This document shows positions 1,817-47,061 of a stretch of DNA of 59,977 bases, piece after piece. The position numbers were made by a program, and so were the translations under genes. The stretch spans positions 1 through 59,977 of the IMG/VR virus record IMGVR_UViG_3300027848_000024, one strand, 5' to 3'. The first letter of the stretch is position 1. The number at the start of each line of letters is the position of its first letter. The stretch is from a virus. Lineage: Duplodnaviria > Caudoviricetes. A model generated the notes under the pieces. The model ran no database searches. It was not told the DNA's origin and was given only the letters and a program-made list of their open reading frames with translations.

Positions 1817-2224
1817 ATGCCAACGAAAAAGAAAGCCGTGGATTTGGCTAATCTTTCGGATGGGGACCTCGTTGATGGCTTCCATGCAATGAAAGCGCGG
1901 GTTAAAGCGTTGACGTCGCAGGCGGAAGCCATGAAAGTCGAGATCACTAGGCGAATGAAGAAACCACCGACGGCGACAAGAGCACGGATGCTGAAGGGTA
2001 GCGCAATTAGTGCTACTTGGATGCAGGAACCGTGGAGATGGGTCGACCAGAAAAACCTGCGGGCCGATGCCGAGAAGAAAATTACCTTAAGGAAGTACCT
2101 TTTGGAAGGCACCCGTAACGTTATGATAACGGCCCCTTCTGGTGAGAACGCAAAAGACGTTCGCCAGAAACAATCAGAAATGCACAGCCCCAAGAAAGCG
2201 GCAAAGAAAAGACCGCGGTTGTAG
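1817..2224 (+). CDS. basic hypothetical protein ending KKRPRL
   Basis: RBS, 135 aa. Confidence 0.8.
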   Translation: MPTKKKAVDLANLSDGDLVDGFHAMKARVKALTSQAEAMKVEITRRMKKPPTATRARMLKGSAISATWMQEPWRWVDQKNLRADAEKKITLRKYLLEGTRNVMITAPSGENAKDVRQKQSEMHSPKKAAKKRPRL

Positions 2225-2228
2225 TACT

Positions 2229-2423
2229 ATGAAAACAATGTTTAAGTACGGATCGCGGTTCGTTGGGGGAATGGTTTTCTTTTGGTTCTTCGCCTTTGTG
2301 ATGCTGCCTGTCTTTGGCTCTTGTGCCTTTGACATGGAGCCGCCGCAAAGTTCGTTCCCAAACGAGGATCCTACCCCAAGAGCCGGTTCCGACGGACTTA
2401 TTGGTGGTTCTTACGCACCATGA
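2229..2423 (+). CDS. small membrane protein
   Basis: hydrophobic stretch MVFFWFFAFVMLPVFG. Confidence 0.6.
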   Translation: MKTMFKYGSRFVGGMVFFWFFAFVMLPVFGSCAFDMEPPQSSFPNEDPTPRAGSDGLIGGSYAP

Positions 2424-2426
2424 AGA

Positions 2427-2513
2427 TAGCAGGGGGCTCCGGCCCCCTGCTACTCTCTTTTGTTGGCTGGTATTATTTAGTCCATATTGGACAAAAACTG
2501 CAAACTGGAGGAG
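2427..2513 (+). promoter_or_regulatory. terminator-like hairpin plus leader element copy 4
   Basis: TAGCAGGGGG..CCCCCTGCTA, then TA GTCCA tat TGGAC aaaa ACTGC aaact GGAGGAG. Confidence 0.7.
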
Positions 2514-2522
2514 TACTTAAAA

Positions 2523-3548
2523 ATGCATCCGAAAAGCACTGTTATTGCGCTGACGGCACTCATTGCAAACCGGGAGCCTGCCTTGCTGGTTGGCCCCCCG
2601 GGAGTGGGAAAGACTTCGTTGATCAAAATGGCGGCAGATGCTGCAGACTACGACCTGATCATCACCCACCCCGTTGTGTCGCAGCCGATCGACTTCCGCG
2701 GTATGCCGTCCACGATTAAGGACGGCGACGAATACCGCGCAGAGTTCCTGCCCATTGGGGCCTTGAGGGACATGTTGGCCGCTACTGAGCCGACCGTGTT
2801 CTTCCTGGATGATCTCGGGCAGGCGGCTCCGTCCACGCAGGCTGCATGTATGCAGCTTCTGTTGGAGCGGCGCTTGGACGAGTATGTGGTCCCTGACTGC
2901 GTTACGTTCATGGCCGCTACCAATGGCCGCAAGGACAAGGCGGGCGTTGGCGGGCTGCTTGAGCCTGTTAAGTCCCGTTTCACCACCATCTTCACGCTTG
3001 AGGTTAGCGTGCAGGAGTGGTGCGATTGGGCGATCGACGCGGGCTACGACGACATGGCGGCGTTCATCAAGTTTCGCCCCGCCCTGTTGTTTGACTTCCA
3101 GCCCACGGCCGATGTGGAAGTCAACTCCCCGGTGCCCCGCACCGTGGAAGCTGCGGCGCGTATCGCGCGGATGGATCTTCCTACCCACATCCGCAATGAG
3201 ATGATTCGTGGCGCGGCTGGTGACGGCTTTGCCGTGGAGTTCTGCCACTTCTTGGATATGGTGGCTAAGCTGCCTGATCCCAGGAAGGTGCTGGCAGACC
3301 CCATGAAGGTGCAGCTGGACGCCGACAATGTGTCCTACACCTATGCTCTGGTTACGGCGGTTTCTCGCGTCGTGGACAAGAACACGATCAGCAATTTCGT
3401 TAAGCTGATCGACCGGGACGAGATTGGCGTGGACTTTGGTACCATGGCCATGCGGATGATTGGCAGGCGGAACAACAAGCTCGTCGCCACTCGTGCGTTC
3501 TTGGATTGGGTGAATGAAAACAACGTGCGCCTGGATTGGGCGTCGTAA
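2523..3548 (+). CDS. MoxR-like AAA+ ATPase
   Basis: Walker A GPPGVGKT, Walker B FFLDD, AATN, SRF; RBS places start at 2523. Confidence 0.9.
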   Translation: MHPKSTVIALTALIANREPALLVGPPGVGKTSLIKMAADAADYDLIITHPVVSQPIDFRGMPSTIKDGDEYRAEFLPIGALRDMLAATEPTVFFLDDLGQAAPSTQAACMQLLLERRLDEYVVPDCVTFMAATNGRKDKAGVGGLLEPVKSRFTTIFTLEVSVQEWCDWAIDAGYDDMAAFIKFRPALLFDFQPTADVEVNSPVPRTVEAAARIARMDLPTHIRNEMIRGAAGDGFAVEFCHFLDMVAKLPDPRKVLADPMKVQLDADNVSYTYALVTAVSRVVDKNTISNFVKLIDRDEIGVDFGTMAMRMIGRRNNKLVATRAFLDWVNENNVRLDWAS

Positions 3549-3557
3549 CTGCCATTG

Positions 3558-3625
3558 GCGGGGGGCCTTCGGGCCTCCCGCTACTTAGGTCATAATAATG
3601 TGACCACTGCGAACTATTGGAGGAG
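3558..3625 (+). promoter_or_regulatory. terminator-like UUCG hairpin plus leader element copy 5
   Basis: GCGGGGGGCC-TTCG-GGCCTCCCGC, then TA GGTCA taataatg TGACC ACTGC gaactatt GGAGGAG. Confidence 0.7.
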
Positions 3626-3631
3626 TACGTT

Positions 3632-4771: not shown

Positions 4772-4788
4772 GTAGCTGGGTTTCCAGC

Positions 4789-4853
4789 GGGGTAGGGGCG
4801 AAAGCCCCTACCCTTTCTTAGTCACTTTGTGACACTGCACTAACTTGGAGGAG
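4789..4853 (+). promoter_or_regulatory. terminator-like GAAA hairpin plus leader element copy 6
   Basis: GGGTAGGGGC-GAAA-GCCCCTACCC, then TA GTCAC ttt GTGAC ACTGC...GGAGGAG. Confidence 0.75.
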
Positions 4854-7517: not shown

Positions 7518-8006
7518 ATGGAAGAAACCCGTTACATAACAAAAGAAGAAGCTGTTTTTGCAGGGAACCAACACTTTGGTGAAGAAAGAAAACACCATAC
7601 CTGCGAAGGTTCCTTTTTTTTGGTGTGCTACCATGTACTGGACAAGAACTTCTCTTGGCAGAAGTTCGGGCACATTGCCAATCCGGTACGGCCTGTTGAG
7701 GCAGGGGCGAAACGGCCACGACTACAAGCCGAAAAGGTCCTGCCTGCCAAAGCGACCGTGGTTGCCAAACCAAAGCGACCCAGCCTCGATGACAAACCAA
7801 AAGGTGATGGCCCCAAGGTTGGGTCCAAAATGAGACTGGTCTTTGACCTATGTCGCGCGGCCGAGGGGGCTACCAAGGACGACCTTGACCAAGCTACGGG
7901 CAACCGGGTTGGCTGGCGGACTCGTGTTATGGATCTTGGAGTCAAGTACGGCTTTGAGTTCTCGGAAGCTGGTACCAAAAAGAATCCGCGGTACTGGCTA
8001 AAGTGA
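7518..8006 (+). CDS. DUF3489-like winged-helix protein
   Basis: C-term GSKMRLVFDLCRAAEGATKDDLDQATG; GAGGAG RBS. Confidence 0.6.
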   Translation: MEETRYITKEEAVFAGNQHFGEERKHHTCEGSFFLVCYHVLDKNFSWQKFGHIANPVRPVEAGAKRPRLQAEKVLPAKATVVAKPKRPSLDDKPKGDGPKVGSKMRLVFDLCRAAEGATKDDLDQATGNRVGWRTRVMDLGVKYGFEFSEAGTKKNPRYWLK

Positions 8007-16845: not shown

Positions 16846-17018
16846 AACATTGGCTTTGCATTACCTGCAAACATGCGTGGGACAGTTACAATGAGGAACA
16901 CTGTGCTTGGTGCGCTTCCAATAGAAGACCACGTCTGCTTGAAGATAAGCAGGTTATGCTGGAAGAAGATCAACAACGAATGCTAAGGGCATTGCAGGGG
17001 GGCAACCATGGACACTAA
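16842..17018 (+). CDS. small Zn-ribbon protein
   Basis: ATGA overlap; CITC...CAWC. Confidence 0.6.
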   Translation: MKHWLCITCKHAWDSYNEEHCAWCASNRRPRLLEDKQVMLEEDQQRMLRALQGGNHGH

Positions 17019-17826: not shown

Positions 17827-18027
17827 ATGATTCTCTCCATAATCGTTATTGTCATTGGTGTTGTGCTTGGTGTAGGTATTAACGAGTACCTCGACCCCGA
17901 ATGCAACCAATACCAGAGCAATCGCACATGCGAAAGCAACTATGATATCTTCTCGGACGATAGACGTCCCAGCCTGTACTACAACAACAACTCAGACGAG
18001 AACGTAGGAGGAGTGCTCCGTGAGTAA
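17827..18027 (+). CDS. small membrane protein
   Basis: N-terminal TM segment. Confidence 0.55.
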   Translation: MILSIIVIVIGVVLGVGINEYLDPECNQYQSNRTCESNYDIFSDDRRPSLYYNNNSDENVGGVLRE

Positions 18028-18841: not shown

Positions 18842-19063
18842 ATGGGGTTGGGCTACAGTAGCGCTCGCATGTCTTTAACAGTTGGGGGTAAAGTGCAAAA
18901 CAACTCATCACACAAGTACTGGCTACATTGTGGCCCCTATGACCCGGCAGACCCTGTGTTTGACATACCAGACTTTCTGCTAGCTAATCCCAAAAAGAAA
19001 GACAAGAAACCAAAAGACACCAAAAAGGTGATTACCAAGAAGTCCAGGCCCCGACTTCGCTAA
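18842..19063 (+). CDS. small basic protein ending SRPRLR
   Basis: FDIPDFL followed by Lys-rich tail. Confidence 0.55.
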   Translation: MGLGYSSARMSLTVGGKVQNNSSHKYWLHCGPYDPADPVFDIPDFLLANPKKKDKKPKDTKKVITKKSRPRLR

Positions 19064-19631: not shown

Positions 19632-19928
19632 ATGGCCAAGGTCCCAAAAATAGACTTTGACAAGGACTTTGCACCCAAGCGCCGGCCGCGCTTAAGCGAC
19701 CCGGCTTCACACACTAAGCAGGCCACCAAAAAGGCAAACACTGTCGACCCAGCCGTGCAACAGTGCCTTGCCCGACTTGGGCCGGTTGTGGCACACATGC
19801 GAGACACGTTGCCCGAAAATATGCGGTCAATGGCAATTTGGTCTGGCACGTCCAACCCAGCATCCAAACTGGCTGCACAAGATATTATAGACATACACGA
19901 CCAGTTGAAAGCACTAGCCAACAAGTGA
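19632..19928 (+). CDS. hypothetical protein
   Basis: 98 aa; KRRPRL near N-terminus. Confidence 0.65.
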   Translation: MAKVPKIDFDKDFAPKRRPRLSDPASHTKQATKKANTVDPAVQQCLARLGPVVAHMRDTLPENMRSMAIWSGTSNPASKLAAQDIIDIHDQLKALANK

Positions 19929-26720: not shown

Positions 26721-27319
26721 TGAGAGCAAGACCACGCATACCGGGTTTTGTTCCCACATGGGAAGGTGCCATTGCTTGGTACGCACTTAAGTATTGTAGG
26801 AAGAACTCTTACCGTTTCCCCAGCGTAGACGTAGAAGATCTCTACGCGGAAGCCTATTTGATTTTTGAGAACATACGCTTTAAGTACGGCCCCCCTCGGG
26901 TAACCTGCGAGAAGCACTTTATGGCGTTGTACAAAACCTCACTGCACAACACGCTAATTGACTTGGGGGTAAGGTGGGCCAGCCGTTCGGCTAGAGAGAC
27001 CCCTGTCGGCTTGTTTAACCGCGCAAATGACGATGCACTGCCCACAATACTTGAGGTAGCAGACCCAGCTAGCGATTTGGGGCCTTTTCTCACCTTCCTA
27101 CGAGAATACAGCGTGGAGTGCAGGCTTTTCGTCTCCATGTTCGACGACCCTCGAAAAATGGAACAATTCAAAAAAGGATACAAGAAAGAATTAGTTGGTG
27201 ATTTAACCAAACGAGAAACTAGGAATGAATTTCTTTGTAGAATCATTGGCATTGACCCAAACAAGTATAAGGTAAGCACCGCGTTAAGAAGCGCACTAAC
27301 AGAGTGGAGACAAGCGTGA
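26720..27319 (+). CDS. sigma-70-like factor (region 2)
   Basis: DVEDLYAEAYL.F...F..LY...LHN.LID. Confidence 0.6.
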   Translation: MRARPRIPGFVPTWEGAIAWYALKYCRKNSYRFPSVDVEDLYAEAYLIFENIRFKYGPPRVTCEKHFMALYKTSLHNTLIDLGVRWASRSARETPVGLFNRANDDALPTILEVADPASDLGPFLTFLREYSVECRLFVSMFDDPRKMEQFKKGYKKELVGDLTKRETRNEFLCRIIGIDPNKYKVSTALRSALTEWRQA

Positions 27320-28463: not shown

Positions 28464-29582
28464 ATGACTGTTGAAATTGGCAAGGTTGGCAAGGAAGCTC
28501 TCAAGGCTACTGGCCAAAAGGTGCAGGGCCAGAAGGAAAAGGACCAGCCTTTCCTTGAGCGAGTTTGTCGCGCCTTTGAGGGGGTTGAGGACGACGACTA
28601 CGAAGACCTGCCCGAAGAGGTGCAGAGCTGGCACGCCGCCGCTGTTGAAGCGGTTAAGGAGGAGGAAGCTATCCCCGCGTTCGAGCCTGTCGCTACCAAG
28701 GGTAAGGGCAAGAAGAAGCCCGAACCTGAGGAAGACGAAGACGAGGAAGACGCGGACGAAGACGCGGACGAAGACGACGAAGACGAGGAAGACGCGGACG
28801 AAGACGCGGACGAAGACGAGGAAGACGAAGAGGAAGACGAGGCCCCGGCACCAAAGAAAAAGGGTAAGGGTAAGAAGACGCCCGAGCCTGAGGAAGACGA
28901 GGAAGACGAAGACGAGGAAGACGCGGACGAAGACGCGGACGAAGACGCGGACGAAGACGAGGAAGACGCGGACGAAGACGAGGAAGACGCGGACGAAGAC
29001 GAGGAAGACGAAGAGGAAGACGAGGCCCCGGCACCAAAGAAAAAGGGTAAGAACAAGAAGAAGACCGAGCCTGAGGAAGACGCGGACGAAGACGCGGACG
29101 AAGACGAGGAAGACGCGGACGAAGACGAAGACGAGGACGAAGACGACAACCAGTCCGACGAGGACGAAGACGAGGAAGAGGATACCAATATGGCTACCAA
29201 GAAGGCTGCCCCCAAGAAGATTGCTCCCAAGAAGAGCCCTCGCAAGGCTAAGGTGGTTGCTGCTGAGGAGACTGTCGTCACTGAAGAGGTGACCGAGACC
29301 CCCAAGAAGAAGGGCAAGGGCAAGGCTGCTCCTGCGCCGAAGGCTGAGAAGGCTGAGAAGGCTGCGCCGGCTGAGAAGGCCCCCAAGAAGAAGCGCGGCC
29401 CGTCGACGGCCGACATTATGATTACGGCTATCGCCAAGAAGCCGGACATCACCAAGGAAAAGATGACCGAGATTCTGGAGAAGAAGGGTGCCGAGGTTAA
29501 GGCCAGCACCATTGCTATCCAGCTCGGGTGGATCAAGCGCATCATTAAGAAGCTGCGCGAAGAGGGCCTGATGGCCGAGTAA
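28464..29582 (+). CDS. acidic/basic low-complexity protein with possible C-terminal DNA-binding domain
   Basis: (EDAD)n tracts alternating with APAPKKKGK; histone H1-like KAEKA/PKKK; strong codon bias; own terminator. Confidence 0.85.
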   Translation: MTVEIGKVGKEALKATGQKVQGQKEKDQPFLERVCRAFEGVEDDDYEDLPEEVQSWHAAAVEAVKEEEAIPAFEPVATKGKGKKKPEPEEDEDEEDADEDADEDDEDEEDADEDADEDEEDEEEDEAPAPKKKGKGKKTPEPEEDEEDEDEEDADEDADEDADEDEEDADEDEEDADEDEEDEEEDEAPAPKKKGKNKKKTEPEEDADEDADEDEEDADEDEDEDEDDNQSDEDEDEEEDTNMATKKAAPKKIAPKKSPRKAKVVAAEETVVTEEVTETPKKKGKGKAAPAPKAEKAEKAAPAEKAPKKKRGPSTADIMITAIAKKPDITKEKMTEILEKKGAEVKASTIAIQLGWIKRIIKKLREEGLMAE

Positions 29583-31502: not shown

Positions 31503-32530
31503 GCAGGCCGCACCTTACCCGGCCTCCGCTAAAAATCCTGCTGGATAGTGGGGCCTTTACTGTGTGGCGTAGCGGTGGCTACATAGATCTTTGGGAGTAC
31601 GTGGACTTTGTTACGGACAATGAGCTGGCACTTAACTCTTATATCAACCTGGACGTGATGCCGGGTGCCCTTGGTAGGGTGCCAACACCAACGGAACTGG
31701 AAGAGTCCGCCCGTGCTGGTTATGAAAATCTTCTTATTATGGAATCGGCGGGTTTGCACTGTATGCCCGTTTACCATGCTGGAGAAGATCTTCGTTGGTT
31801 GGATAAGTACATCAGCAAGGGGTACACTTACATAGGGATCTCACCTAGCTCCATTCGTTCCAGCCGGGGCCGTGTTGCTTTCCTCGACCGTGTGTACGAC
31901 CACATTGCTAATAGCGCTGGTCAACCTGTCGTAGCGACGCACCTGTTGGGGTTGACCAGTTTGCCACTCATGTACCGCTACCCGTGGAAAACGTGTGACA
32001 GCACGTCTTGGATGCTCATTGGTGCGTTTGGTAACATACTTCTTCCCAAGATGAATGACGGGGTGCCTGATTATTCCGTTAGCCCAAACATGGTAGCAAT
32101 GAGCGAGAAGAGCGGCTCTATTAAGGGCGGAAAGCATTTTCTCAATATGAAGGGGCACGAGAAGAAAGCTATCGTGGACTTCATTGAGAGCAATGGCTTT
32201 ACCGTAACTGGTATGGAAACCCACTACCGAGACCGCATGAAACTAATTACCCGTGTGCTTCTTAACGTGCAGGCTACTTTACGCAAGAAGAACATGACTT
32301 TCCAAAAGCAAGGTTTTATACATACTTCCAGTTACCGAAATGAACCGGGGTTTGTTATTAAAGACAGAAGCATTATTTTTGCTTTCCCGGCACAGGATTC
32401 TTTTAACAGTATTCTAAACGGGGAAGGCGTGGTTAATCGTCTTGTAAGTTATGAGTTCCTAAAACAACGTAACCTATCGGAATTGCACACGTATAAGAAG
32501 ACGTGGGAATTCCTTCCAACCGGAGTGTAA
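31499..32530 (+). CDS. dpdA: DpdA/TGT-like 7-deazaguanine DNA transglycosylase
   Basis: LLDSGAF, YINLDV, PVYH.GE, HLLG, PW..CDSTSW; directly after queC-folE. Confidence 0.75.
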   Translation: MSRPHLTRPPLKILLDSGAFTVWRSGGYIDLWEYVDFVTDNELALNSYINLDVMPGALGRVPTPTELEESARAGYENLLIMESAGLHCMPVYHAGEDLRWLDKYISKGYTYIGISPSSIRSSRGRVAFLDRVYDHIANSAGQPVVATHLLGLTSLPLMYRYPWKTCDSTSWMLIGAFGNILLPKMNDGVPDYSVSPNMVAMSEKSGSIKGGKHFLNMKGHEKKAIVDFIESNGFTVTGMETHYRDRMKLITRVLLNVQATLRKKNMTFQKQGFIHTSSYRNEPGFVIKDRSIIFAFPAQDSFNSILNGEGVVNRLVSYEFLKQRNLSELHTYKKTWEFLPTGV

Positions 32531-32532
32531 CA

Positions 32533-33645
32533 ATGGACCGTCACGTACTTCTGAAGCAGTTGGGTATTGCCAAGCTGGCTCTTGCTACCAAGGACTTTGT
32601 TCCGGTGCTAACCTGCTTCCACTTCACCGGCAAGGAGGTTGTTGCCTATAACGATCAGCTTGGTATCAAAACCAAGTGTCCCACGGGGTTTAGTGGTCTG
32701 GTGCGCGGTAGTCAGCTGCTCGGGTTTCTCAACAAGTACACGGGCAAGGAACTGGATCTCACCGTTGATAAAGAGATTCTAACCGTGGGAAAGGGTCGTA
32801 GCAAGTTCACCGCCCCCATCCTGCCAGAGTCCGACTACATATTCAAAGTACCCTCGGGCATTAAGAACGCTTGGGACATTGATATTACGCCATCCTTCAT
32901 TCTGGCGCTTCGGCACTGCCTTATTAGTGCTAGCGACGACATGTCCATGCCGCAGTTTAGTGGCATTCTTGTTAGACGGCTTGGAGACTTCCTAAAGCTG
33001 TTTAGCACCAACGATCGCACCATCTGTTCGTATGAGATCCCGGGAAAGAAACTTGAGGGCGGAGAAACACACGCTATTCTCCCCACTAACTTTTGTACCG
33101 CGCTGGTTGATATTGCCGACGAGGTACTTTCCCTGAAAAACCCGGAAGCCTCGTTGAGCATTGGCAAGCAGAGCGTTATGGCTACCTTCGGCGGGGGTAC
33201 TTCCATTTACAGCAAGTTTGCTTCCGGTGTTAACCCCCCTGATTACGAAGCCATGGTGGCTTCCTTTGATGCGGGGCATACCAACGGGGACATGGTTCCC
33301 ATTCCCGCCAACTTCTACGCAGCCATCCAACGTTGCCAGTTGGTTCTTACGGAGGACAGCCCGCACATCATAGCTTCCATTGCGGAAAACAAGCTAACCC
33401 TGCGGGCTGAATCCCGCTTTGGTAAGGTTAGGGAAGTTCTCAAGTTGGAGGCGGTGGAAGATCACACTGTTGCGGAAACCACCGTGCGCTTGCTCCCGGA
33501 AGATATGCTGCGCGTGTCGGACAAGGTGTCTTCCATGCTCCTAGGGCAGTCGGGCAGTCGTTTCGGCGGAACAACCCACTACTTCAACTACTATGTTGCC
33601 CCGCTGGCCACTCCCACCGTTGCCGCGGTAGAGGAGGAAGACTAA
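32533..33645 (+). CDS. dnaN: DNA polymerase III beta-like sliding clamp
   Basis: ~370 aa, PVLT.F, AYND, STND, PDY motifs. Confidence 0.75.
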   Translation: MDRHVLLKQLGIAKLALATKDFVPVLTCFHFTGKEVVAYNDQLGIKTKCPTGFSGLVRGSQLLGFLNKYTGKELDLTVDKEILTVGKGRSKFTAPILPESDYIFKVPSGIKNAWDIDITPSFILALRHCLISASDDMSMPQFSGILVRRLGDFLKLFSTNDRTICSYEIPGKKLEGGETHAILPTNFCTALVDIADEVLSLKNPEASLSIGKQSVMATFGGGTSIYSKFASGVNPPDYEAMVASFDAGHTNGDMVPIPANFYAAIQRCQLVLTEDSPHIIASIAENKLTLRAESRFGKVREVLKLEAVEDHTVAETTVRLLPEDMLRVSDKVSSMLLGQSGSRFGGTTHYFNYYVAPLATPTVAAVEEED

Positions 33646-33906: not shown

Positions 33907-36492
33907 ATGGGCTTTTTTATTGCGGACGAAAAGAAGAAGCTGGCAAAGAGAAGGCCCGATTCGGTAAGCAAGGAAACCCTGTACGAAATGGGGTGCGCCG
34001 CCTGCCCTTTGAACAAAGCTAAGGTTACCTCCCCAAAGATGGGGTCTACTGGTGCCGACAACGCCCCAATCTACGTGCTACACGGGGGTATTACCGAGGA
34101 GCAGGACGACGAGGGCCGACATTTGGTTGGCGACGCTGGGTCCGAGTTTAAACGCATTTTTGGTGCGGCGAACATACAGCATATGCGGTTTGGTTCTGTA
34201 ACTAAGGATTATACCCCCAAGGGCAGGCGACCCAATGAAGTAGAAATAAACTGCTGCCGCAAACAAGTAGAAGAAGATATTGCCCTGCATAAGCCCAAGG
34301 TTGTTATCGGACTTGGGTTTCTTGCTATGAAGTGGGCTACGGGCCTTACGGACATTAAGTTGTTCTCTTACAGGCTTATCCCGGTTAACATTGGCGGGCA
34401 CGACTGTTGGTTCTTCCCTATGGAAGACATGGAAACCATGCTGGCCAATATACGCGCGTCTCAGCGCACCGGAGAACGGTATTTCACAGAAGCAGACAAC
34501 CTCGCCAAGCATCGCGGCCGCGCCATTGTACTTAAGGCTAAAAAGAACAAGTTGGGTAAACCTGAAGTTCTTTCGCAGGCGGACTATGCACAGGGCATAC
34601 ACATTGTCTTTGGAAAGAACGAAACTTCTGATCTTAAAACAATTGAACGCCACTTTAAGAAGATGTCCGTAGAAGATTCCTGCGCCTACGACATCGAAAG
34701 CCATGGGCTACGCCCTTATAACAACGGCGCTAAACTTCTTAGCATCGCTATTGGTACCTACGGCAACACCCTTGCTATTGGGCTAGAACACCCGGAGTGT
34801 CAGTGGAGTCGTAAAGGGCTGAAGGCGGTGTACGCCTTAGTAGAGAAATTCCTTAGAGAAACCACCACAAAGAAGGTTGCCCATAACCTGCCTTTTGAAC
34901 TAGAACATATGGGTTACTACTTTGGGTTCGACATTTGTTGGGCCGCGAATTGGCAAGACACGGTTATGCAGGCATACATCTTGGACGAGCGTAACAAGCA
35001 GATGCGCGGGTTTAGCTTGGACGATTTGTGTACCATTAACTTAGGACTTAGAATTAAGGAAATTAGCAATCTCGACCGCGCCAACCTTATTCAAGCCCCG
35101 TTGGTTGAAGTGCTCACCTACAACGGGGGAGATACTAAATACACACATAAGCTCTATCTAACACAGCAAGCTAAGCTGGAAGACCAATCACTGGTGGAAG
35201 TGTACGAAGATGCGCTGCGCAGGTGCAAGACGGTGCCCGCTACACAACTTGCCGGATTACACGTTGACCAGAGTGAGGTAGTACGCTACCAAAAGTTTCT
35301 CTCTAAGAAGATAAAGAAAGCGGAGAAAGCTATAAAGTCCCTCCCGGAAGTAGACGAGTACGAGGCCAAGTACAGAAAACATTTTAACGTGGGTAGCCCC
35401 GAAGACGTAGCTAAGGTGTTGTATGAGTTTGCTGGTGTGCGCTCCGTTAAAGTGAACGGCAAGTTTAAGGCGGATGAAGGCATTTTGTCTAAGGTGACTC
35501 ACCCGTTGGCTAAATTGGCGCTGGACTTCCGTGGAGCAACCAAGCTGAAATCCACCTACGTCGACGGGTTGGCCATAGGTGGGGACTACCTGTTCGACGA
35601 TGGCATGTTACACCCGGTTCTTAGTCCTTGCATCGCGGAGACGGGACGTCTTACTTCTAAGGAGCCAAACGAGCAGAATTTCCCCAAGCATAAAGACAAG
35701 TACATTCGTAGCCAGATCGTAGCGCCAAGCGGTGAACTGTTTGTTGCCGCGGACTACGGGCAAATTGAATGGCGCGTGATTGGTTTGTGCGCCAAGGACA
35801 AGGCGCTCAAGGCCGCACTGTGGGAACGGTACGACGTTCACAAGGAGTGGGCGGAAAGAATTATAGCGCAGTGTTCTAGTCTTATTGGTGGTGGTCGTTG
35901 GAAGAGCTTGGATAAGGCCGAGCAGGGTATTTGGAGACAACGTAGCAAGAACGAGTTTGTGTTCCCTAGTTGTTTTGGTGCACAGCCAAAAGGGATTGCC
36001 AACAGCCTTGGGGTAGACGAGAAGCAAATTGTGTGGCTGCAAAAAGAGCTTTGGAAGCAGTTCCCCGGTGTGCGCCGCTGGCACGAAGACACCAGAAAGT
36101 TCTACGCTGAGAACTTCTACGTGGAAACCCTCACTGGTAGACGCCGACGCGGACCGTTGGAAAGGAACCAGCCAATCAACACTCCAGTGCAAGGCACTGC
36201 CGCCGACGTGGTTATGGATGCCATGGCGCGGCTAAGCGAGTACGCTTGCAAGGTTGGCGACATACGTTACCAGCCTGTTCTTAACATCCACGATGACTTG
36301 ACCTTTAGGTTGCCTGAGAACAAGGCCGAGGAATACTTGGAAAACATCCTGGAGATTATGTTGCAGAGCTCCTACAAGTTTTTTGATGTGCCAATTCTTG
36401 TGGAAGTGGAGGCGGGTAGTAGTTGGTACGATCTCAACGAAGTTGACAAGTTTTACAGTGACGATTGGTTCAATCAGAAACAGGCTGCTTAA
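33907..36492 (+). CDS. polA: family A DNA polymerase with N-terminal UDG-like domain
   Basis: CAACPL/CCR UDG-4-like; exo YDIES, HN..FE; TGRLTS..PNEQNFP, ADYGQIEWR, QGTAAD, IHDDL. Confidence 0.93.
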   Translation: MGFFIADEKKKLAKRRPDSVSKETLYEMGCAACPLNKAKVTSPKMGSTGADNAPIYVLHGGITEEQDDEGRHLVGDAGSEFKRIFGAANIQHMRFGSVTKDYTPKGRRPNEVEINCCRKQVEEDIALHKPKVVIGLGFLAMKWATGLTDIKLFSYRLIPVNIGGHDCWFFPMEDMETMLANIRASQRTGERYFTEADNLAKHRGRAIVLKAKKNKLGKPEVLSQADYAQGIHIVFGKNETSDLKTIERHFKKMSVEDSCAYDIESHGLRPYNNGAKLLSIAIGTYGNTLAIGLEHPECQWSRKGLKAVYALVEKFLRETTTKKVAHNLPFELEHMGYYFGFDICWAANWQDTVMQAYILDERNKQMRGFSLDDLCTINLGLRIKEISNLDRANLIQAPLVEVLTYNGGDTKYTHKLYLTQQAKLEDQSLVEVYEDALRRCKTVPATQLAGLHVDQSEVVRYQKFLSKKIKKAEKAIKSLPEVDEYEAKYRKHFNVGSPEDVAKVLYEFAGVRSVKVNGKFKADEGILSKVTHPLAKLALDFRGATKLKSTYVDGLAIGGDYLFDDGMLHPVLSPCIAETGRLTSKEPNEQNFPKHKDKYIRSQIVAPSGELFVAADYGQIEWRVIGLCAKDKALKAALWERYDVHKEWAERIIAQCSSLIGGGRWKSLDKAEQGIWRQRSKNEFVFPSCFGAQPKGIANSLGVDEKQIVWLQKELWKQFPGVRRWHEDTRKFYAENFYVETLTGRRRRGPLERNQPINTPVQGTAADVVMDAMARLSEYACKVGDIRYQPVLNIHDDLTFRLPENKAEEYLENILEIMLQSSYKFFDVPILVEVEAGSSWYDLNEVDKFYSDDWFNQKQAA

Positions 36493-37562: not shown

Positions 37563-38096
37563 ATGGCAAGTAGACCAACATTGAATAACGAAGTTGTGGA
37601 AGAGGACGAAGCAGAATATAAACACTACCGTAGCAAACTTCGTATCCAAAAAACCAACTTAGACACACACTTTGAGCAACACCCGGAACTTTTCCACGAA
37701 ATATCGGAGAAGTGCCGGGTATTGCAATCTCAACGGGATCTGCTCCTTTTTAGAATAAAAAGGTATGAATCTCGATTTTACACAAAAACAAAAGCCAACA
37801 CTACCGGCAGAGTTACCAAAGAAGAATTATCCGCCAAAATAATGAATGAACCCCATTGGCGGGCTATGCAAGATGATTTGAAGGAACTGCAACATCACCT
37901 TGCCAAATGGCAGACACTCAAAGAGTCTTTTAACCAACGTAGTCAAATGCTGCGCGAGCTTGGTCGTATATACGTAGCAGGGTACTTTAGCGACATCGTC
38001 ATTAAGGGCAGCAATGACCTAACCGACGAAACCTACGCGCAAAGAAGGGTCGCTATGTCTCAGCAACGGAAAGCAACCAAGAAAAGAAAACTGTGA
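37563..38096 (+). CDS. UvsY-like coiled-coil recombination mediator
   Basis: helical protein next to SSB/RecA; F.QR..ML..L..Y..GYF. Confidence 0.5.
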   Translation: MASRPTLNNEVVEEDEAEYKHYRSKLRIQKTNLDTHFEQHPELFHEISEKCRVLQSQRDLLLFRIKRYESRFYTKTKANTTGRVTKEELSAKIMNEPHWRAMQDDLKELQHHLAKWQTLKESFNQRSQMLRELGRIYVAGYFSDIVIKGSNDLTDETYAQRRVAMSQQRKATKKRKL

Positions 38097-38297: not shown

Positions 38298-39515
38298 ATG
38301 GCGCTTAAGAAGAAGACAGCCAAGAAGACGTTCAACTACAAGCCGCGTTCCGCGGAGCAGGTTAAGAAGCGCGCCAACCAGTCCGGGCGGGACTTCGACT
38401 CTATCTTCAAGGACGACGCGCAGACCTACTCCATTGGCGAGGGGAAGAACACGGTACGTATTCTCCCGCCGACATGGGACGACCCCGAGCACTACGGCTT
38501 GGACATTTGGGTCCACTACGGTGTTGGCCCCGATGATGTCACCTACCTGTGCGCGGACAGGATGAACGGCACGCATTGTCCCGTCTGCGCTGAGCAGGCA
38601 CGGGCCGCGGCGGACGATGACGAAGAGTCCGCTAAGGCGTTTAAGGCCAAGCGGCGCATTGTGGTTTTTGTGGTCGACCGCAAAGATGAAGATTCCGCCC
38701 CCGAGATTTGGTCCATGCCGGTTACCTTGGACAAGGAAATCGCTGGACAGGCCGAAGAAGAAGACGGTGGCGTTATCCCGCTTGACAACCCCTACGATGG
38801 GTTTGACGTTGTGTTTAGCCGAGAAGGCAAGGGACTTGCTACCAAGTACAGCAAGGTGAAGTTGGCGCGGCGGTCCTCTCCGGCGCTGGCGGATGATGAT
38901 GAGCTTGCCGCACTCTTGGAAAAGATCCAGGAGCGCCCGCTTCCCTCGTGGTTGAACTTCTACAGTGTTGAGCACATCGAAAAGGTGCTTGGTGGTGGTG
39001 CTTCCCGTCGTACGGACGAGGAAGACGAGGAAGAAGACGAAGACCCCGCCACCAAGAAGACTAAGAAGAAAACGAAGAAGCCCAGCGTGGACGACGAAGA
39101 CGAAGACGAGGACGAAGACGAGGACGAAGACGACGACGCCCCCGCCCCTAAGAAAAAGGGCAAGTCCAAGAAGAAGCCTGAGCCCGACGAAGAAGAAGAA
39201 GAAGACGAGGACGAAGACGAAGACGAAGACGAAGACGAGGACGAAGACGAAGACGAGGACGAAGACCCCGCCCCTAAGAAAAAGGGTAAGGGTAAGAAGA
39301 CGCCCGAGCCCGACGAAGACGAAGACGAGGACGAAGACGAGGACGAAGACGAGGACGAAGACGAGGAAGAAGAAGAAGACGAGGACGAAGACGAAGACGA
39401 GGACGAAGACCCCGCCCCCAAGAAGTCCGCGAAAAAGTCCGCGAAAAGCAGCATTGAGCGCCTGAAAAAGACCAAGGGTGCCGGTGTCATTAAGTCCAAG
39501 AAAAAGGTGAGGTAA
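38298..39515 (+). CDS. gp32-like ssDNA-binding protein with long acidic/basic tail
   Basis: G.NTVRILPP, HY, C...CPVC, DNPYDGFD, G..TKY; (DE)n tail. Confidence 0.8.
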   Translation: MALKKKTAKKTFNYKPRSAEQVKKRANQSGRDFDSIFKDDAQTYSIGEGKNTVRILPPTWDDPEHYGLDIWVHYGVGPDDVTYLCADRMNGTHCPVCAEQARAAADDDEESAKAFKAKRRIVVFVVDRKDEDSAPEIWSMPVTLDKEIAGQAEEEDGGVIPLDNPYDGFDVVFSREGKGLATKYSKVKLARRSSPALADDDELAALLEKIQERPLPSWLNFYSVEHIEKVLGGGASRRTDEEDEEEDEDPATKKTKKKTKKPSVDDEDEDEDEDEDEDDDAPAPKKKGKSKKKPEPDEEEEEDEDEDEDEDEDEDEDEDEDEDPAPKKKGKGKKTPEPDEDEDEDEDEDEDEDEDEEEEEDEDEDEDEDEDPAPKKSAKKSAKSSIERLKKTKGAGVIKSKKKVR

Positions 39516-39523: not shown

Positions 39524-40579
39524 ATGGCCGTTGCAAAGAAAGCAGGAAGACCTTCTTTGTCCACGGGCAAACAGGAAAGCGGCGGGCTCTACTTTGAGTC
39601 CGCCGACTCTCTTGAGACCTTCTCAAGCGGATGCAAACTACTTGACTGTGTGCTTGGGAATGGTTGGCCTGTTGGACGTATCGTCAACATCATTGGGGAC
39701 AAGAGCACAAACAAAACCGGCCTATCAATGGAAGCAGCTACTAACTTCTTGCGTACCTTCGAAGATGGTATTGTGCGCTATGTGGAAGCTGAAGCGGCTT
39801 TTAACAAGGACTACGCCTCCATGCTTGGTGCTCCTGTGGACCGCATGGAGTTCCCCAACGAAGAAGGAAGTACTGGTAAGAAGGCCATCTTTCTTATCGA
39901 GGAGTTTGGTGCCGACCTTATTACCTTCTGCGAAAAGCGGAAGAAGGATGGCAAGCACGGCCTGTACATTATAGATAGCTTGGACGCCTTGTCCGACGTT
40001 GGCGAAATGAAGAAAGAGTTTGGAGACGCCAGCTACGGAAACAAGGCCAAGAAGATGTCCGAACTGTTCCGTCGTATTACCGGCAAGATTGAACAGTCCT
40101 CGGTAACGCTTATTGTGGTGTCACAGGTGCGTGACAACATTGGCGTGATGTTTGGTAGCAAGCACACCCGGTCTGGTGGCCGTGCGCTCGATTTCTACTC
40201 CAGCATCAACCTATGGCTGTCCCAAGTTAAGGAGATGTCTCGGACCAGTAAGAAGGTTAAGCGCACCTTTGGTATCCGGGTAAAGGCTAAGGCCAAAAAG
40301 AATAAGGTTGGCCTGCCCCAACGGGAATGCGAGTTCTCCGTTATCTTTAGCTATGGCATAGATGACGTAGGGTCACACTTGCAATGGCTCTCGGATATTG
40401 GACAGCTTGACGAGATAGACATAGAAGCAGCTACGGCCAAGGAAATCATAGCTAAGGGGGCCGGTCGCGTTATGGATATCAAGGACGAACGCCGCCTGCG
40501 CAAGAAGCTTAACGTTGTGGTGAAACGCCATTGGCGTAGAATTGAACATGACTTTCTTCCCGCACGAGGCAAGTACTAG
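39524..40579 (+). CDS. recA: RecA/UvsX-like recombinase
   Basis: SSG..LD..LG.GWP.GRIV, IIDS, SQVRD.IGVMFG, SGGRAL.FY, KNKVG.P. Confidence 0.92.
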   Translation: MAVAKKAGRPSLSTGKQESGGLYFESADSLETFSSGCKLLDCVLGNGWPVGRIVNIIGDKSTNKTGLSMEAATNFLRTFEDGIVRYVEAEAAFNKDYASMLGAPVDRMEFPNEEGSTGKKAIFLIEEFGADLITFCEKRKKDGKHGLYIIDSLDALSDVGEMKKEFGDASYGNKAKKMSELFRRITGKIEQSSVTLIVVSQVRDNIGVMFGSKHTRSGGRALDFYSSINLWLSQVKEMSRTSKKVKRTFGIRVKAKAKKNKVGLPQRECEFSVIFSYGIDDVGSHLQWLSDIGQLDEIDIEAATAKEIIAKGAGRVMDIKDERRLRKKLNVVVKRHWRRIEHDFLPARGKY

Positions 40580-40975: not shown

Positions 40976-41549
40976 AAAAGGCTTTGGGAAGAACAAAGGA
41001 AATGCGTTTGAGCGTACTATTGCAAAGACACTTTCTCTTTGGGTTAGCGGGGGCACCCGTGATGACTTGTACTGGCGCACGGCGGGGAGTGGCGGGCGGG
41101 CCACGACCCGTCGACGTGTAGCGCGTAAGGGCACTGTCAACGCCGATGGTGACATTGGTAGCGAAAGCCCCATAGGTCGCCTGTTAATTGAGACCTTTCA
41201 CGTAGAGTGCAAGCGGTACAATAAATTGGAAGCTGAAAGGCTTGTGTTTAACAACACGGGCTTCTTAGTTAGCACATGGAAGCATCTTGTCAGCGATTCT
41301 CGTATTGGCAAGAAGCGGCCCATGCTTATTGCCAAGCAGGACCACCGGGACGCTATTATTGTTCTGTGCCACTACGGAGAAATGATCTTCCAAGCAGACG
41401 AGCAACTGCCCTGTCTGTGCTATGTACCTGAGTTGGATATGTACATATACAGCTTGGAAGAGTTTCTTGCCAAAATGCGTAATCCCATAGATAAGATAGA
41501 AAAGAGGAAGCGTTATGCTGCTCGTAGCAACAGACCTACACTTCACTGA
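40965..41549 (+). CDS. Holliday junction resolvase (PD-(D/E)xK)
   Basis: KGNAFER, SGG, GDI, VECK. Confidence 0.8.
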   Translation: MARRKGFGKNKGNAFERTIAKTLSLWVSGGTRDDLYWRTAGSGGRATTRRRVARKGTVNADGDIGSESPIGRLLIETFHVECKRYNKLEAERLVFNNTGFLVSTWKHLVSDSRIGKKRPMLIAKQDHRDAIIVLCHYGEMIFQADEQLPCLCYVPELDMYIYSLEEFLAKMRNPIDKIEKRKRYAARSNRPTLH

Positions 41550-44443: not shown

Positions 44444-46029
44444 TGTCCACGGCGACACGGTCACGGCCCCGGCTGGGTAGCGCGTCAAATACCAGCACAA
44501 AGGCCACAAATGAGTCGACCAGTAGCCCTCGGCCCAAACGACCGAGCTTGGCTGGCGTAACAACCAAAAAAACCACCAGCGCTAAAAAAAAGCGGCCTAG
44601 CCGTAGACAGCGTATTCAGCCCATTCAATCCAACGTAAACATCATTCAGGCGTGTTTGCGGGACGATCTGTTTGGCAAATGGTTTAAGCATGATAAGTAC
44701 CAGTGGATCACTTGGTTTACTTTCCTGCGCACCATGTTCGGGTTAAAGCTGCTAGACCCACAACTGGACATTTACCAAAAGTGCACTGGTAGGAAGAAAC
44801 CTACACAAAGGGCCGTACAGGAAGCGTACCTCATTTGTGGGCGGCGTAGCGGCAAGTCTCGTGTGCTGGCCCTAATGGCAGTGTTCCTTGCGTGCTTTGT
44901 TGACTGGCGACCGTGTCTAGCGCCCGGTGAGCGCGGCACCATTATTCTTGTGGCTACGGACCGCAAGCAGGCCCGCGTTATGTTCAGGTACATAGAAGCC
45001 TTCCTAAAGCAAACAGATCTGCTAAAGGATGTTATTATACGTGACACCCGAGAAATGTTTGAACTAAAGAAGAGTATTAACATTGAAATTCATACGGCTA
45101 GCCTGCGCGGTGTGCGTGGTTACACAATTGTCGCGGCGCTACTGGATGAGATCGCTTTCTTTAGAAGTGAAGAAAGTACCAACCCCGATACTGAAATCTT
45201 GGAAGCCCTACGCCCCGGCACTGCCACGGTACCGGGGTCCATGATACTTTGCGCAAGCAGCCCCTACGATAGACGTGGCGTTCTTTGGGAAGCCTACCAA
45301 GAGTACTATGGTAAGGAGGACCCTGACATACTTGTGTGGAAAGCCCCTACTTGGGTAATGAACCCAACAGTCCCTGACAAGTTCCTTAAGAAGCAATTCC
45401 GTAAGGACCCCGTTAGTGCGGACGCGGAGTATGGAGGCAACTTTAGAATGGATGTTAGCAAGCTGGTTTCTGAAGAAGTTATCCTTAGCGCCATAGAGCC
45501 CGGCTTGTATGAATTGCCCTACATAGCTTCTCACTATTACACAGGGTTTGTGGACGTGTCGGGCGGCAGTAGTGACAGCTACACGTTAGGCATTGCCCAT
45601 TACGACGAGGTTACGCGGAAGGTGGTGCTCGACTTGGTACGAGAATGGATGGTTCCCTTTAGCCCCATGGAAGTAACAAGACAGGCCGTTTCTATTCTAA
45701 AGGCTTACGGTATCTCAGAAGTCACTGGCGATAGGTATGGTGGCGAATGGCCACGAGAGCAGTTTGAAGAGGGAGGCATCAACTACAACTTGTCCCCTAA
45801 GACAAAGACGGAACTTTACCAGGACCTACTGCCCATGCTGAATTCCGGTACTGCTCAACTGGTGGATATGAGAACGCTTAAGAACCAGTTGAAATCTTTA
45901 GAACGCCGTACCCAGCGCGGCGGACGTGAAATTATTGATCATCCCCCCAAAGCTAAGGACGACGTGGCCAATGCGGCGGCTGGCGCGGTAGTCCTATGCA
46001 ACGCACAAGGACCGGCAGATGTCTTCTAA
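44443..46029 (+). CDS. terL: terminase large subunit
   Basis: GRRSGKS, RG...LLDE.AF, ASSP, APTW.MNP, FVDVSGG..DS, DHP...DD.ANA. Confidence 0.9.
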   Translation: MSTATRSRPRLGSASNTSTKATNESTSSPRPKRPSLAGVTTKKTTSAKKKRPSRRQRIQPIQSNVNIIQACLRDDLFGKWFKHDKYQWITWFTFLRTMFGLKLLDPQLDIYQKCTGRKKPTQRAVQEAYLICGRRSGKSRVLALMAVFLACFVDWRPCLAPGERGTIILVATDRKQARVMFRYIEAFLKQTDLLKDVIIRDTREMFELKKSINIEIHTASLRGVRGYTIVAALLDEIAFFRSEESTNPDTEILEALRPGTATVPGSMILCASSPYDRRGVLWEAYQEYYGKEDPDILVWKAPTWVMNPTVPDKFLKKQFRKDPVSADAEYGGNFRMDVSKLVSEEVILSAIEPGLYELPYIASHYYTGFVDVSGGSSDSYTLGIAHYDEVTRKVVLDLVREWMVPFSPMEVTRQAVSILKAYGISEVTGDRYGGEWPREQFEEGGINYNLSPKTKTELYQDLLPMLNSGTAQLVDMRTLKNQLKSLERRTQRGGREIIDHPPKAKDDVANAAAGAVVLCNAQGPADVF

Positions 46030-46666
46030 ACTAACTCCCGTAGACAATGCAGCAACGTGTTTCTTGCGCAGAACTTCTACAACATTAAACCCGGCGGCTA
46101 GGGCCATGCAAAAGATACTAGTAGAAGATTTACACTACTCGGTAAATAACGAGCAGGACCCCGCGGTAACGCACAGATATTCCACAGAAACTATTCTGCT
46201 TAAGAAAGAACTAAAGAAACTATCTCGCCAAATAACAAGAAGGCCCGTAGTCCTTAATATAGGTTGCGGGTTTTGTACGAGGTTCCTAGAAGTTCCGGGC
46301 GTGGATTGGGTTGAAGTAGACGATAAGTCCGTATTAGAACTTCGGAACAAAGTGTACCGCCAGTTTGGGTCCCGTCCGCAATACAGTGATGGGTACCTAC
46401 GCGGGAACACTGTTCGCAGGTTAGACAATTTGTACGCTGACATTGTGATAGCGGAAGGCGTTTTCCAGTACCTAGACGTAGAAACTATTGCCTACCTGCT
46501 TACTAGGTATCCTGTGGTCATTTTTGATGTGCACAAAAAGAACGACCACTACACCTACTTGGAAAGTGAATACCCTTGGAAAGACTATGCCTTTAGCCCC
46601 CCGGTTGTGCTACATGAAGAACGTGGCCTTGTAGCCATGGTAAAAGAATTCACTTTTAAGATGTGA
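46019..46666 (+). CDS. class I SAM-dependent methyltransferase-like (LCM family)
   Basis: VLNIGCGFCTR, WVEVD, IAEGVFQYL. Confidence 0.7.
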   Translation: MSSKLTPVDNAATCFLRRTSTTLNPAARAMQKILVEDLHYSVNNEQDPAVTHRYSTETILLKKELKKLSRQITRRPVVLNIGCGFCTRFLEVPGVDWVEVDDKSVLELRNKVYRQFGSRPQYSDGYLRGNTVRRLDNLYADIVIAEGVFQYLDVETIAYLLTRYPVVIFDVHKKNDHYTYLESEYPWKDYAFSPPVVLHEERGLVAMVKEFTFKM

Positions 46667-46675
46667 GGGGCATTT

Positions 46676-46945
46676 ATGGGTCGTAGGAAAAAAGTAGTTT
46701 CGGAGGAATCGACCCCGGCTAAAGCGCTTCCTCTTACCCAATTATGGGGGTACTACGAAGAAGACGGGTCCATGCGGTTAACGGATGGGAATCGCAAGAT
46801 AGGTACCATAAAGCAAGAAGATGGTGTTTGGCGCGGGCGCATCCGCCATAACAAAACCATGATTACGGCCAAGTCTCGCAAGATGGATGTTTGTTTTGAG
46901 AGACTTTGGTATAAGATAAAAATCTTTGCTAAAAACAACGGGTGA
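46676..46945 (+). CDS. small basic hypothetical protein
   Basis: GAGGGG RBS. Confidence 0.6.
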   Translation: MGRRKKVVSEESTPAKALPLTQLWGYYEEDGSMRLTDGNRKIGTIKQEDGVWRGRIRHNKTMITAKSRKMDVCFERLWYKIKIFAKNNG

Positions 46946-47061
46946 GGGTTGCCTTGTCTAACTCATTAAGCAAATATGGTTTTGGTTGTTTTGGCACATG
47001 TGCGCGTGTCGTACTGCCAGATCAACCCAAACTTGGAGATAAACGCCCGTCGCTTATGTAG
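46942..47061 (+). CDS. 39-aa ORF ending KRPSLM (not in ORF track)
   Basis: GTGA overlap with previous stop. Confidence 0.4.
   Translation: MRVALSNSLSKYGFGCFGTCARVVLPDQPKLGDKRPSLM

Follow-up and report, generated by a model that had tools for sequence, protein, structure and literature searches.

A short peptide shared by unrelated phage proteins

Why does the same four-residue peptide, Arg-Pro-x-Leu (RPxL), recur at the ends of unrelated proteins of a single phage? The question is raised by IMG/VR virus record IMGVR_UViG_3300027848_000024 (Duplodnaviria; Caudoviricetes), and the stretch analysed here, referred to as the window, is the complete virus record of 59,977 base pairs. An initial annotation had listed copies of (K/R)RPxL at the termini or in linkers of proteins encoded between positions 1817 and 47061, and had proposed that they form a phage-wide docking, localisation or degradation tag. 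All 15 of the peptides that it quoted were found to be present, in frame, in the open reading frames (ORFs) to which they had been assigned.

The reading that we favour, held at a little under even confidence, is that RPxL, usually preceded by Lys, Arg or Ser, would serve as a short linear docking tag on the flexible ends and linkers of about a dozen unrelated proteins. The clients would be RecA, a UvsY-like mediator, a PDDEXK nuclease, a DpdA-like enzyme, TerL, a possible sigma-like protein and five to six small proteins, and the tag would tether them to one shared, co-evolving receptor at the replication-recombination machinery. RPxL would then be the spelling used by this lineage for a broader tag, a basic cluster followed by Leu, that is carried clade-wide on RecA, the mediator and the nuclease. 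The spelling would drift in concert within a genome because all of the clients must fit one site. The copies are listed here, with protein lengths in amino acids (aa).

2210..2221, plus strand: RPRL (in KKRPRL), the last four residues of the 135-aa protein 1817-2224, whose gene has an AGGAG-type ribosome-binding site
7713..7787, plus strand: KRPRL (7713-7724) and KRPSL (7776-7787), separated by 21 residues in the linker, rich in Pro, Ala and Lys, of the 162-aa protein 7518-8006
16926..16937, plus strand: RRPRL, in the small protein 16842-17018, immediately following a CxxC...CxxC segment that resembles a zinc ribbon
17965..17976, plus strand: RRPSL (in DDRRPSL), in a 66-aa protein with a hydrophobic N-terminus (17827-18027), 16 residues from its C-terminus; absent from the list in the initial annotation
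19046..19057, plus strand: SRPRLR (in KSRPRLR), the C-terminus of the 73-aa protein 18842-19063
19683..19694, plus strand: KRRPRL, residues 16-21 of the 98-aa protein 19632-19928
26729..26740, plus strand: MRARPRI, the N-terminus of the 199-aa protein 26720-27319
31505..31531, plus strand: MSRPHLTRPPL, an overlapping pair of tags with which the DpdA-like protein opens (start 31499, end 32530)
37572..37583, plus strand: MASRPTL, the N-terminus of the UvsY-like mediator 37563-38096, which closes with KKRKL
39548..39559, plus strand: KKAGRPSL, in the predicted disordered N-terminal tail of RecA (39524-40579)
41532..41543, plus strand: NRPTLH, the C-terminus of the nuclease 40965-41549 (Pfam PDDEXK_15)
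44464..44550, plus strand: RSRPRL (44464-44475) and PKRPSL (44539-44550), both in the N-terminal extension, rich in Ser, Thr, Lys and Pro, of TerL (44443-46029)
47044..47055, plus strand: KRPSLM, the end of a doubtful 39-codon ORF with a GTG start (46942-47061)
58304..58315, minus strand: ERPRL, an internal copy in a 243-aa protein encoded in the structural block (58199-58930); absent from the list in the initial annotation

In the 16 tag-like copies, Arg, Pro and the final Leu or Ile are invariant, the x position is Arg in eight, Ser in four, Thr in two and His or Pro in one each, and the residue preceding the Arg is mostly Lys, Arg or Ser. The RRPSL copy in 17827-18027 is possibly a chance occurrence, and ERPRL in 58199-58930 is probably unrelated to the tag. 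Three more copies, FRPAL (in the product of 2523), KKRPML (in the nuclease, 40965) and WRPCL (in TerL), are buried in folds and are likewise probably unrelated.

Enrichment and terminal bias of RPxL

The statistics were computed on the 81 called proteins of the window (17,914 aa) with 300 within-protein residue shuffles. RP.[LI] was found 19 times, compared with 5.7±2.4 times in the shuffled proteins (maximum 14), and the narrower RP[RST]L 13 times, compared with 0.59±0.74 (maximum 3); in neither case did any of the 300 shuffles reach the observed number. Because RPxL had been picked after looking, all 8,000 patterns of the form 'ab.c' were scanned. RP.L, observed 18 times in 13 proteins where 3.6 were expected (Poisson P 5.8e-8, or about 5e-4 after Bonferroni correction), ranked fourth. 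The three patterns above it (ED.D, DE.E and GG.G) are all of low complexity, making RP.L the top pattern that is not. The RP dipeptide alone stands at background (45 observed, 41.3 expected), and the excess lies in the Leu two residues on, which follows 18 of the 45.

Nine of the 19 copies start in the first 16 or last nine positions of their protein, where 2.2 were expected (binomial P 1e-4). The codons used for the Arg, Pro and Leu vary from copy to copy, which excludes a repeat at the DNA level; selection therefore acts on the peptide. The recurrence claimed in the initial annotation is thus confirmed against a composition-matched background, both in the number of copies and in their terminal placement.

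Position of the tags relative to folds and gene starts

The initial annotation had also placed most copies outside conserved folds. This was borne out for RecA, TerL and the PDDEXK nuclease, whose tags lie beyond the aligned domains. The Pfam domain of RecA covers residues 26-280, starting after the tag, and in an AlphaFold2 model built with 60 homologues residues 1-30 are coil, with a predicted local distance difference test score (pLDDT) of 52-60 compared with a mean of 88. Homology of TerL to other terminases begins at residues 118-134, after its tags, while alignments of the nuclease stop 14-50 residues short of the C-terminus, before its tag. The tag has the general properties of a short linear motif, with few fixed positions and a location in disordered regions outside folded domains. 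It is also independent of position, as the same spelling is found at N-termini, at C-termini and in linkers, and is gained or lost among homologues.

Some of these placements turn on the choice of start codon. The DpdA-like protein most likely starts at 31499, with a 4-nucleotide (nt) overlap with the upstream stop; its homologues open just before LDSGA and the ESM Atlas holds an identical 343-aa form. With this start, MSRPHLTRPPL is its N-terminus. The DpdA-like label is a lead, taken from the nearest named ESM Atlas cluster (PF23859 DpdA in 29% of members, TM score 0.65), and the protein had no sequence match in Pfam, NCBIfam or the PDB. For the protein at 26720, the sole signal behind the sigma-like label was a sigma70-ECF match at E 0.09, and no PDB match was found. 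The TerL tags hinge on the ATG at 44443, which has a 1-nt overlap with the stop of the Rad50-like gene; the codon-usage caller favoured a TTG at 44548, and the first 105 nt after the ATG are weak in coding statistics. ORF 46942 (39 codons, GTG start) lacks a ribosome-binding site, has a weak coding signal and may not be a gene.

A basic tag ending in leucine in related phages

Relatives were recovered with a RecA-seeded scan of IMG/VR, which gave 36 loci, and with a second seed, which gave six more (L001-L042); their RecA proteins are at most 50% identical to that of this phage. The order of genes for the clamp, PolA, clamp loader, UvsY-like mediator, single-strand DNA-binding protein (SSB), RecA, PDDEXK nuclease, Mre11 and Rad50 is conserved in them. 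The exact pattern RP.[LI] was in no general excess in the first 16 RecA-linked loci, and TerL of this phage, sought in five related records, gave no match. The PDDEXK C-termini come only from the 42 IMG/VR loci, a protein search having returned two non-self matches each for the nuclease and the clamp.

Literal RPxL is mostly absent from the orthologous termini, so that the conservation looked for in the initial annotation does not hold to the letter; what the same ends carry is a basic cluster plus Leu. For RecA, 115 of 119 non-self homologues had a usable N-terminal tail, with a median of 15 residues before the conserved Y-F, and a basic cluster ending in Leu or Ile was present in 79 of the 115 compared with 190 of 1,477 internal 20-aa windows. 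Examples are MAKRERAKL, MKRVKLD, MRRRLNEGG, MDRPKLKR and MKRPRLK. The UvsY-like family gave 1,051 library matches at E ≤ 0.001, of which 149 representatives were read. A basic cluster plus Leu lies in the first 16 or last 12 residues of 88 of these (47 begin with it and 56 end with it), compared with 86 of 1,460 internal 12-aa windows. The same peptide, RPRLND, opens one homologue (P0198, MADERRPRLND) and closes another (P0176). Among PDDEXK orthologues the C-termini include RRKRLSL, KRVRL...RERLN, MRVRL and ARPT. The tag is thus present clade-wide on these three proteins.

Terminal counts of the loose basic-plus-Leu pattern exceeded expectation in the window (19 observed, 8.1 expected), in two whole related genomes (14 and 7.3 in G001, 12 and 6.0 in G002) and in the close loci (34 and 18.8). 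An expansion across the whole phage is firmly established solely for the RPxL of this phage. In G001, the record behind L042, a DNA methylase (11346-12302; PF01555, E 1.7e-12) ends in RERVRL, the spelling of the RecA and nuclease tags of that genome; its gene is found two genes upstream of the clamp, with a 141-aa ORF between. Counting the DpdA-like protein here, there are thus two phages in which the local tag is found on a DNA-modifying enzyme.

Co-variation of tag spelling within genomes

Within this phage the spellings on RecA (RPSL), the mediator and the nuclease (both RPTL) are alike. The relatives show the same likeness in other spellings, with MERRVSQ on RecA and LERRVSK at the end of the nuclease in L010, MAKRLKLGG and RRKRLSL in L001, MVKRNRLKE and KRVRL in L008, and KRQRVRLED and MRVRL in L042. 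Co-variation was scored as the best ungapped match of four or five residues between two tails, and scores within genomes were compared with those of permuted genome pairs. With tails extracted by a motif-anchored rule, the RecA N-terminal and PDDEXK C-terminal tails of 14 entries matched within genomes (permutation p 0.0001-0.0007). The result held after removal of duplicates and clade-mates, which left 11-13 genomes (p 0.0004-0.001), after merging of Lys and Arg, which removes the K/R bias driven by G+C content (p 0.002-0.005), and after exclusion of the window itself (p 0.002-0.017). As an internal control for composition, the SSB C-terminal tips were compared with each of the three tails and did not co-vary with any of them (p 0.13-0.6). 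Mere composition is ruled out as the cause of the co-variation by the merged-residue result together with this control.

Candidate receptors

The proteins considered as possible partners, and one motif that bears on the choice, are listed here.

38298..39515, plus strand: gp32-like SSB (phrog_1192, single-strand DNA-binding protein, E 1e-23)
28464..29582, plus strand: a 372-aa acid-repeat protein with 61-aa acidic repeats (183-nt period, 2.3 copies, 86% matches)
32533..33645, plus strand: DnaN-like sliding clamp, an alternative receptor (TIGR00663 dnaN, E 4.3e-7, below the cut-off; Pfam DNA_pol3_beta N-domain, E 6e-4)
33907..33921, plus strand: MGFFI at the N-terminus of PolA, a predicted clamp-binding motif distinct from the tag

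By analogy with T4, our tentative candidate for the receptor is the gp32-like SSB, acting through its acidic tail and possibly with the acid-repeat protein 28464 as a second scaffold, a suggestion that should be regarded as doubtful. In T4, the A-domain of gp32, which is acidic and C-terminal, is the binding site of both UvsX and UvsY (PMC3016280, PMC11551737), and the C-terminal region of gp32 recruits partners such as Dda (PMC11551737). The phage studied here encodes a gp32-like SSB with an acidic C-terminal region, as a hub of this type would require. The tail, unusual in its length and acidity, comprises about 160 residues (roughly 240-390), in which acidic blocks alternate with KKKGKGKK spacers, and its coding sequence contains a tandem array at 39093-39410. 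Direct reading showed that the spacer PAPKKKGKGKKTPEP is identical in the repeats of 28464 (28731-29176) and in the SSB tail, and that acidic blocks are also shared. BLASTP found no match between the two proteins because composition adjustment hides low-complexity repeats. The two genes lie 10 kb apart, and their shared repeats suggest that one was recently duplicated from, or converted by, the other in this part. Several clients bear two or three tags, which fits a repetitive scaffold such as the SSB tail or 28464.

The extreme C-terminus of the SSB varies among relatives. It is acidic-aromatic in distant relatives (DEDVPF, DEFPF, DDDVPY, DPDVPF) and basic and amphipathic in most close ones (ERLRRRAR, GLKRRRAR and ERFKKR, each at the end of the protein), with DEDAPW in L008 and an acidic tip in a few (L001, L005, L037-L042). 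From these sequences, the tail type looks like it has switched within one syntenic module.

The clamp, named first among the docking targets in the initial annotation, now appears less likely. PolA of this phage, which has a UDG-like N-terminal domain followed by 3'-5' exonuclease and polymerase domains, opens with an aromatic motif of its own, and 14 of the 18 orthologues with a covered N-terminus open with GFFF, SFFF, PFFF or LPL[FY]P (MGFFF, MSFFF and KPFFF; LPLFP or LPLYP in distant members). Judged from sequence, this N-terminus is probably a clamp-binding motif, on a polymerase of family A whose partners are a DnaN-like clamp and a loader of its own, and the presence of a separate motif makes the clamp a less likely receptor for the tag.

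A wider proposal, which we rate as rather improbable, is that the tag would be an address label. It would sort replication, recombination, modification, packaging and transcription proteins into a membrane-less factory built by the polyampholytes of the SSB tail and 28464, and co-evolution of label and scaffold would give each lineage its spelling. Were this so, a lineage-specific spelling could keep the proteins of co-infecting relatives out.

Alternative explanations

RecA itself could be the receptor, if the tag were the contact between RecA protomers and partners mimicked it to dock on, cap or nucleate filaments. The tag is native to the RecA N-terminal tail in most of the family (79/115), it lies just upstream of the conserved Y-F (which takes the place of the strand next to the core), the strongest co-variation is that between RecA and the nuclease, and the mediator is tagged too. 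We nevertheless consider this unlikely. There is no evident reason why the G001 methylase, the DpdA-like enzyme, TerL or the 26720 protein should bind RecA, and the linker between the RecA tag and the Y-F varies in length (about 5 to about 28 residues), as would suit a tether more than a fixed interface. In the monomer model, too, the tail was undocked, which says little. Loading onto the DnaN-like clamp 32533-33645 through a variant clamp-binding motif would suit a phage that has genes for both a clamp and its loader. Motifs of this kind are short and found at termini or in loops, T4 gp45 carries the polymerase and late-transcription proteins, and the tagged proteins include clients of the clamp type, namely a DNA-modifying enzyme, a junction nuclease and the possible sigma-like protein. 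Bacterial clamp motifs, however, are hydrophobic or aromatic, with a consensus of the QL[SD]LF or QLxLxL type, whereas the tag offers one Leu in a basic context. The aromatic N-terminus of PolA is also the natural candidate for the clamp cleft, the site between domains II and III at which such motifs bind, and we regard loading of the tagged proteins on the clamp as improbable. We attach a similarly low probability to the tags being non-specific nucleic-acid-binding arms that resemble AT-hooks or the KARL motif, raise the affinity of their enzymes for DNA and have no protein receptor. All of the identifiable carriers act on DNA, the tags are basic, and the terminal enrichment of the loose pattern extends to distant phages. 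Neither the invariance of Arg, Pro and Leu/Ile in all 16 copies nor the co-variation of spelling within genomes would be expected of arms driven by charge. An AT-hook has a Gly-Arg-Pro core flanked by Lys or Arg, but Gly precedes Arg-Pro in only one of the 16 copies (AGRPS in RecA), and the Leu at +3, invariant here, is not required of AT-hooks. A precedent for such arms lies in the LKARLDY ('KARL') segment of T4 UvsY, in which Lys and Arg contribute to single-stranded DNA (ssDNA) binding according to the relevant passages of PMC3016280.

Recognition by an AAA+ unfoldase, either a host ClpX-like enzyme or the phage MoxR-type ATPase (2523-3548), would make the tag a signal for remodelling or timed turnover of stable nucleoprotein complexes. 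As described in the part of PMC12723719 that deals with them, ClpX degrons are unstructured and typically N- or C-terminal, and MuA C-motif-2 (CILEQNRRKKAI, ending in RRKKAI) is a basic cluster plus an aliphatic residue. It resembles the C-termini KKRPRL, KKRKL, RERVRL and QRERL, and differences in spelling from phage to phage could track different hosts. Against this stand the same spelling in internal linkers (7518, 16842) and at both ends of proteins, the multiple copies in TerL and 7518, which are atypical for a degron, and the absence of an obvious benefit in destroying RecA, the nuclease or TerL, and a role as an unfoldase signal thus has little probability in our estimation. An origin of the pattern in chance or composition is scarcely credible. 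The pattern was defined post hoc and several instances depend on gene calls, but the shuffles, the scan of 8,000 patterns, the unenriched RP dipeptide, the terminal bias and the family-level homologues all speak against it. Three further candidates were rejected. A protease cutting at the C-terminal copies would release 0-1 residues, a kinase site of the RRxS type does not suit the half of the copies that are RPRL, and import into a phage nucleus was set aside as the record is 60 kb long and none of the 69 proteins scanned against Pfam and PHROGs matched a shell-protein family.

Strength of the docking proposal

The function proposed in the initial annotation is partly supported. The enrichment, the homologous tags and the co-variation fit docking on a common receptor, with localisation and degradation, also suggested there, as further possible functions. 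Several observations weigh against the docking proposal. That the tag binds a protein, and which protein that would be, we infer. A low-complexity acidic tail leaves the fixed Pro and Leu unexplained, and the tips of the SSB did not co-vary with the tags. Among relatives the literal pattern is rare (RP.[LI] in 12 of the 115 RecA N-terminal tails), and RP.L is in no excess in the two whole related genomes, G001 and G002; taken literally, this is the absence from orthologous termini that the initial annotation named as refuting its proposal. In the pooled distant loci the loose basic-plus-Leu pattern is also terminally enriched (36 observed, 23.9 expected, P 0.008), so that some of the signal must reflect protein ends in general.

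The co-variation result also carries a risk of forking paths, as significance was reached only after the extraction rule had been changed. A first, crude extraction gave p 0.30 for RecA and PDDEXK and 0.12 and 0.98 for the other two comparisons. It contained errors (a tail of three residues with a score of -99, a mis-anchored tail and the loss of one genome) and was replaced by the motif-anchored rule. The comparison of RecA with the UvsY-like C-terminal tail was marginal (p 0.03-0.07). Finally, the count includes some copies for which the gene start is uncertain or the ORF itself is in doubt (TerL, 46942).

Comparison with known systems

The wiring of many clients to one hub by a short motif is well known for cellular clamps and SSBs. 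Clamp-binding motifs (those of the bacterial beta clamp, the PCNA PIP-box and the clients of T4 gp45) resemble the tag in being short, in lying at either terminus or in a loop and in being shared by many unrelated DNA enzymes, which they bring to one hub as is proposed for the tag. They differ in being hydrophobic or aromatic where the tag is basic with one Leu, and PolA of this clade has its separate aromatic motif. BRC repeats mimic the oligomerisation motif of RAD51, and a recombinase inter-subunit peptide copied onto partners in the same way would explain the co-variation of RecA and the nuclease. Several of the carriers here are not recombination proteins, however, and a contact of the RecA N-terminal tag with the neighbouring protomer is only hypothetical.

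With the T4 gp32 A-domain and the Escherichia coli SSB C-terminal tip, many replication and recombination proteins, among them the recombinase and its mediator, are gathered on an ssDNA-bound protein through a short disordered segment, as is proposed here. There the motif is acidic or amphipathic and sits on the hub, and the clients have folded pockets; here a basic motif sits on the clients, so that the polarity would be reversed, with a single site serving all clients. The KARL segment of T4 UvsY shares the K/R-x-R-L spelling and belongs to a recombination mediator, but according to PMC3016280 it is part of the folded N-terminal domain, with ssDNA binding as its assigned role, whereas the tags here are terminal, disordered and found in many families. 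MuA-type C-motif-2, as outlined in part of PMC12723719, is an unstructured terminal signal with a basic cluster and an aliphatic residue at the extreme C-terminus. The C-termini KKRPRL, SRPRLR and KKRKL match this form, and copies so spelled at N-termini or in linkers do not; unlike C-motif-2, the tag is also internal, N-terminal and in tandem.

The tag would differ from known hub systems in its chemistry, in its place on the clients (if SSB is the receptor), in its lineage-specific spelling and in its spread to modification, packaging and small proteins. No phage-wide basic terminal tag was described in the open-access literature searched, mostly at the level of titles and abstracts. If the docking proposal is correct, the tag would offer a simple way to find the centre at which a large clade of uncultured phages organises its replication and recombination, and a functional lead for five to six small ORFs as partners or regulators of the same hub. 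DNA-modification enzymes (DpdA-like here, a methylase in a relative) would be physically coupled to the machinery, and the peptide could possibly be used to bring cargo to phage replication sites.

Gene content of the record

Gene content was determined with Pfam, PHROG and NCBIfam scans. The genes lie on the plus strand to about 47,060, and beyond a strong hairpin (about 47,130-47,156) a minus-strand structural block follows. The hairpin is G+C-rich (47125-47161, GGCAGG...CCTGCC), has an A-run on one side and a T-run on the other, and is likely to be a bidirectional terminator, situated where the plus- and minus-strand blocks converge. Megablast with 12 kb of the window gave no match in the phage collection, and the nearest non-self RecA among 5.8 billion proteins has 50% identity; this phage has no close relative in the collections searched.

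The plus strand includes a syntenic block encoding the DnaN-like clamp, PolA with its UDG-like N-terminal domain, the clamp loader, the UvsY-like mediator, the gp32-like SSB, RecA, the PDDEXK_15 nuclease, Mre11-like and Rad50-like proteins and TerL. Further genes encode a DnaB-like helicase, an SNF2 helicase, an RNase H and a primase-like protein. The following sets were also found.

2523-6209: MoxR-type AAA ATPase (itself at 2523-3548), DUF3150-like protein and DUF2201 metallopeptidase/vWA protein
20431-21270: radical-SAM (QueE-like) protein of a 7-deazaguanine DNA-modification set
27316-27789: PTPS/QueD of the same set
29672: QueC of the same set
30453-31502: GTP cyclohydrolase I (FolE) of the same set
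31499-32530: DpdA-like protein of the same set

The orthologue of the DUF3150-like protein in G002 opens with MAKRRRLSL, which is tag-like. GTP cyclohydrolase I (30453-31502) contains an intein (Pfam Intein_splicing, residues 95-239), which divides the cyclohydrolase domain in two. Short acidic C-terminal tails close the DnaB-like helicase (DEPDDEED, 22700), the SNF2 helicase (DELYEDN, 25001) and the clamp (AAVEEED, 33645); opposite in charge to the tags, they could be part of the same electrostatic network. The early region encodes a pentapeptide-repeat protein (8919-9614, E 7e-46) and a NYN-domain protein (12837-13382, E 6e-32). After TerL, a methyltransferase-like protein (46106-46666) has a weak match to leucine carboxyl methyltransferase (PF04072, E 6e-4, below the cut-off), and two of the tagged proteins, those closing with KKRPRL and KKRKL, end in a C-terminal Leu.

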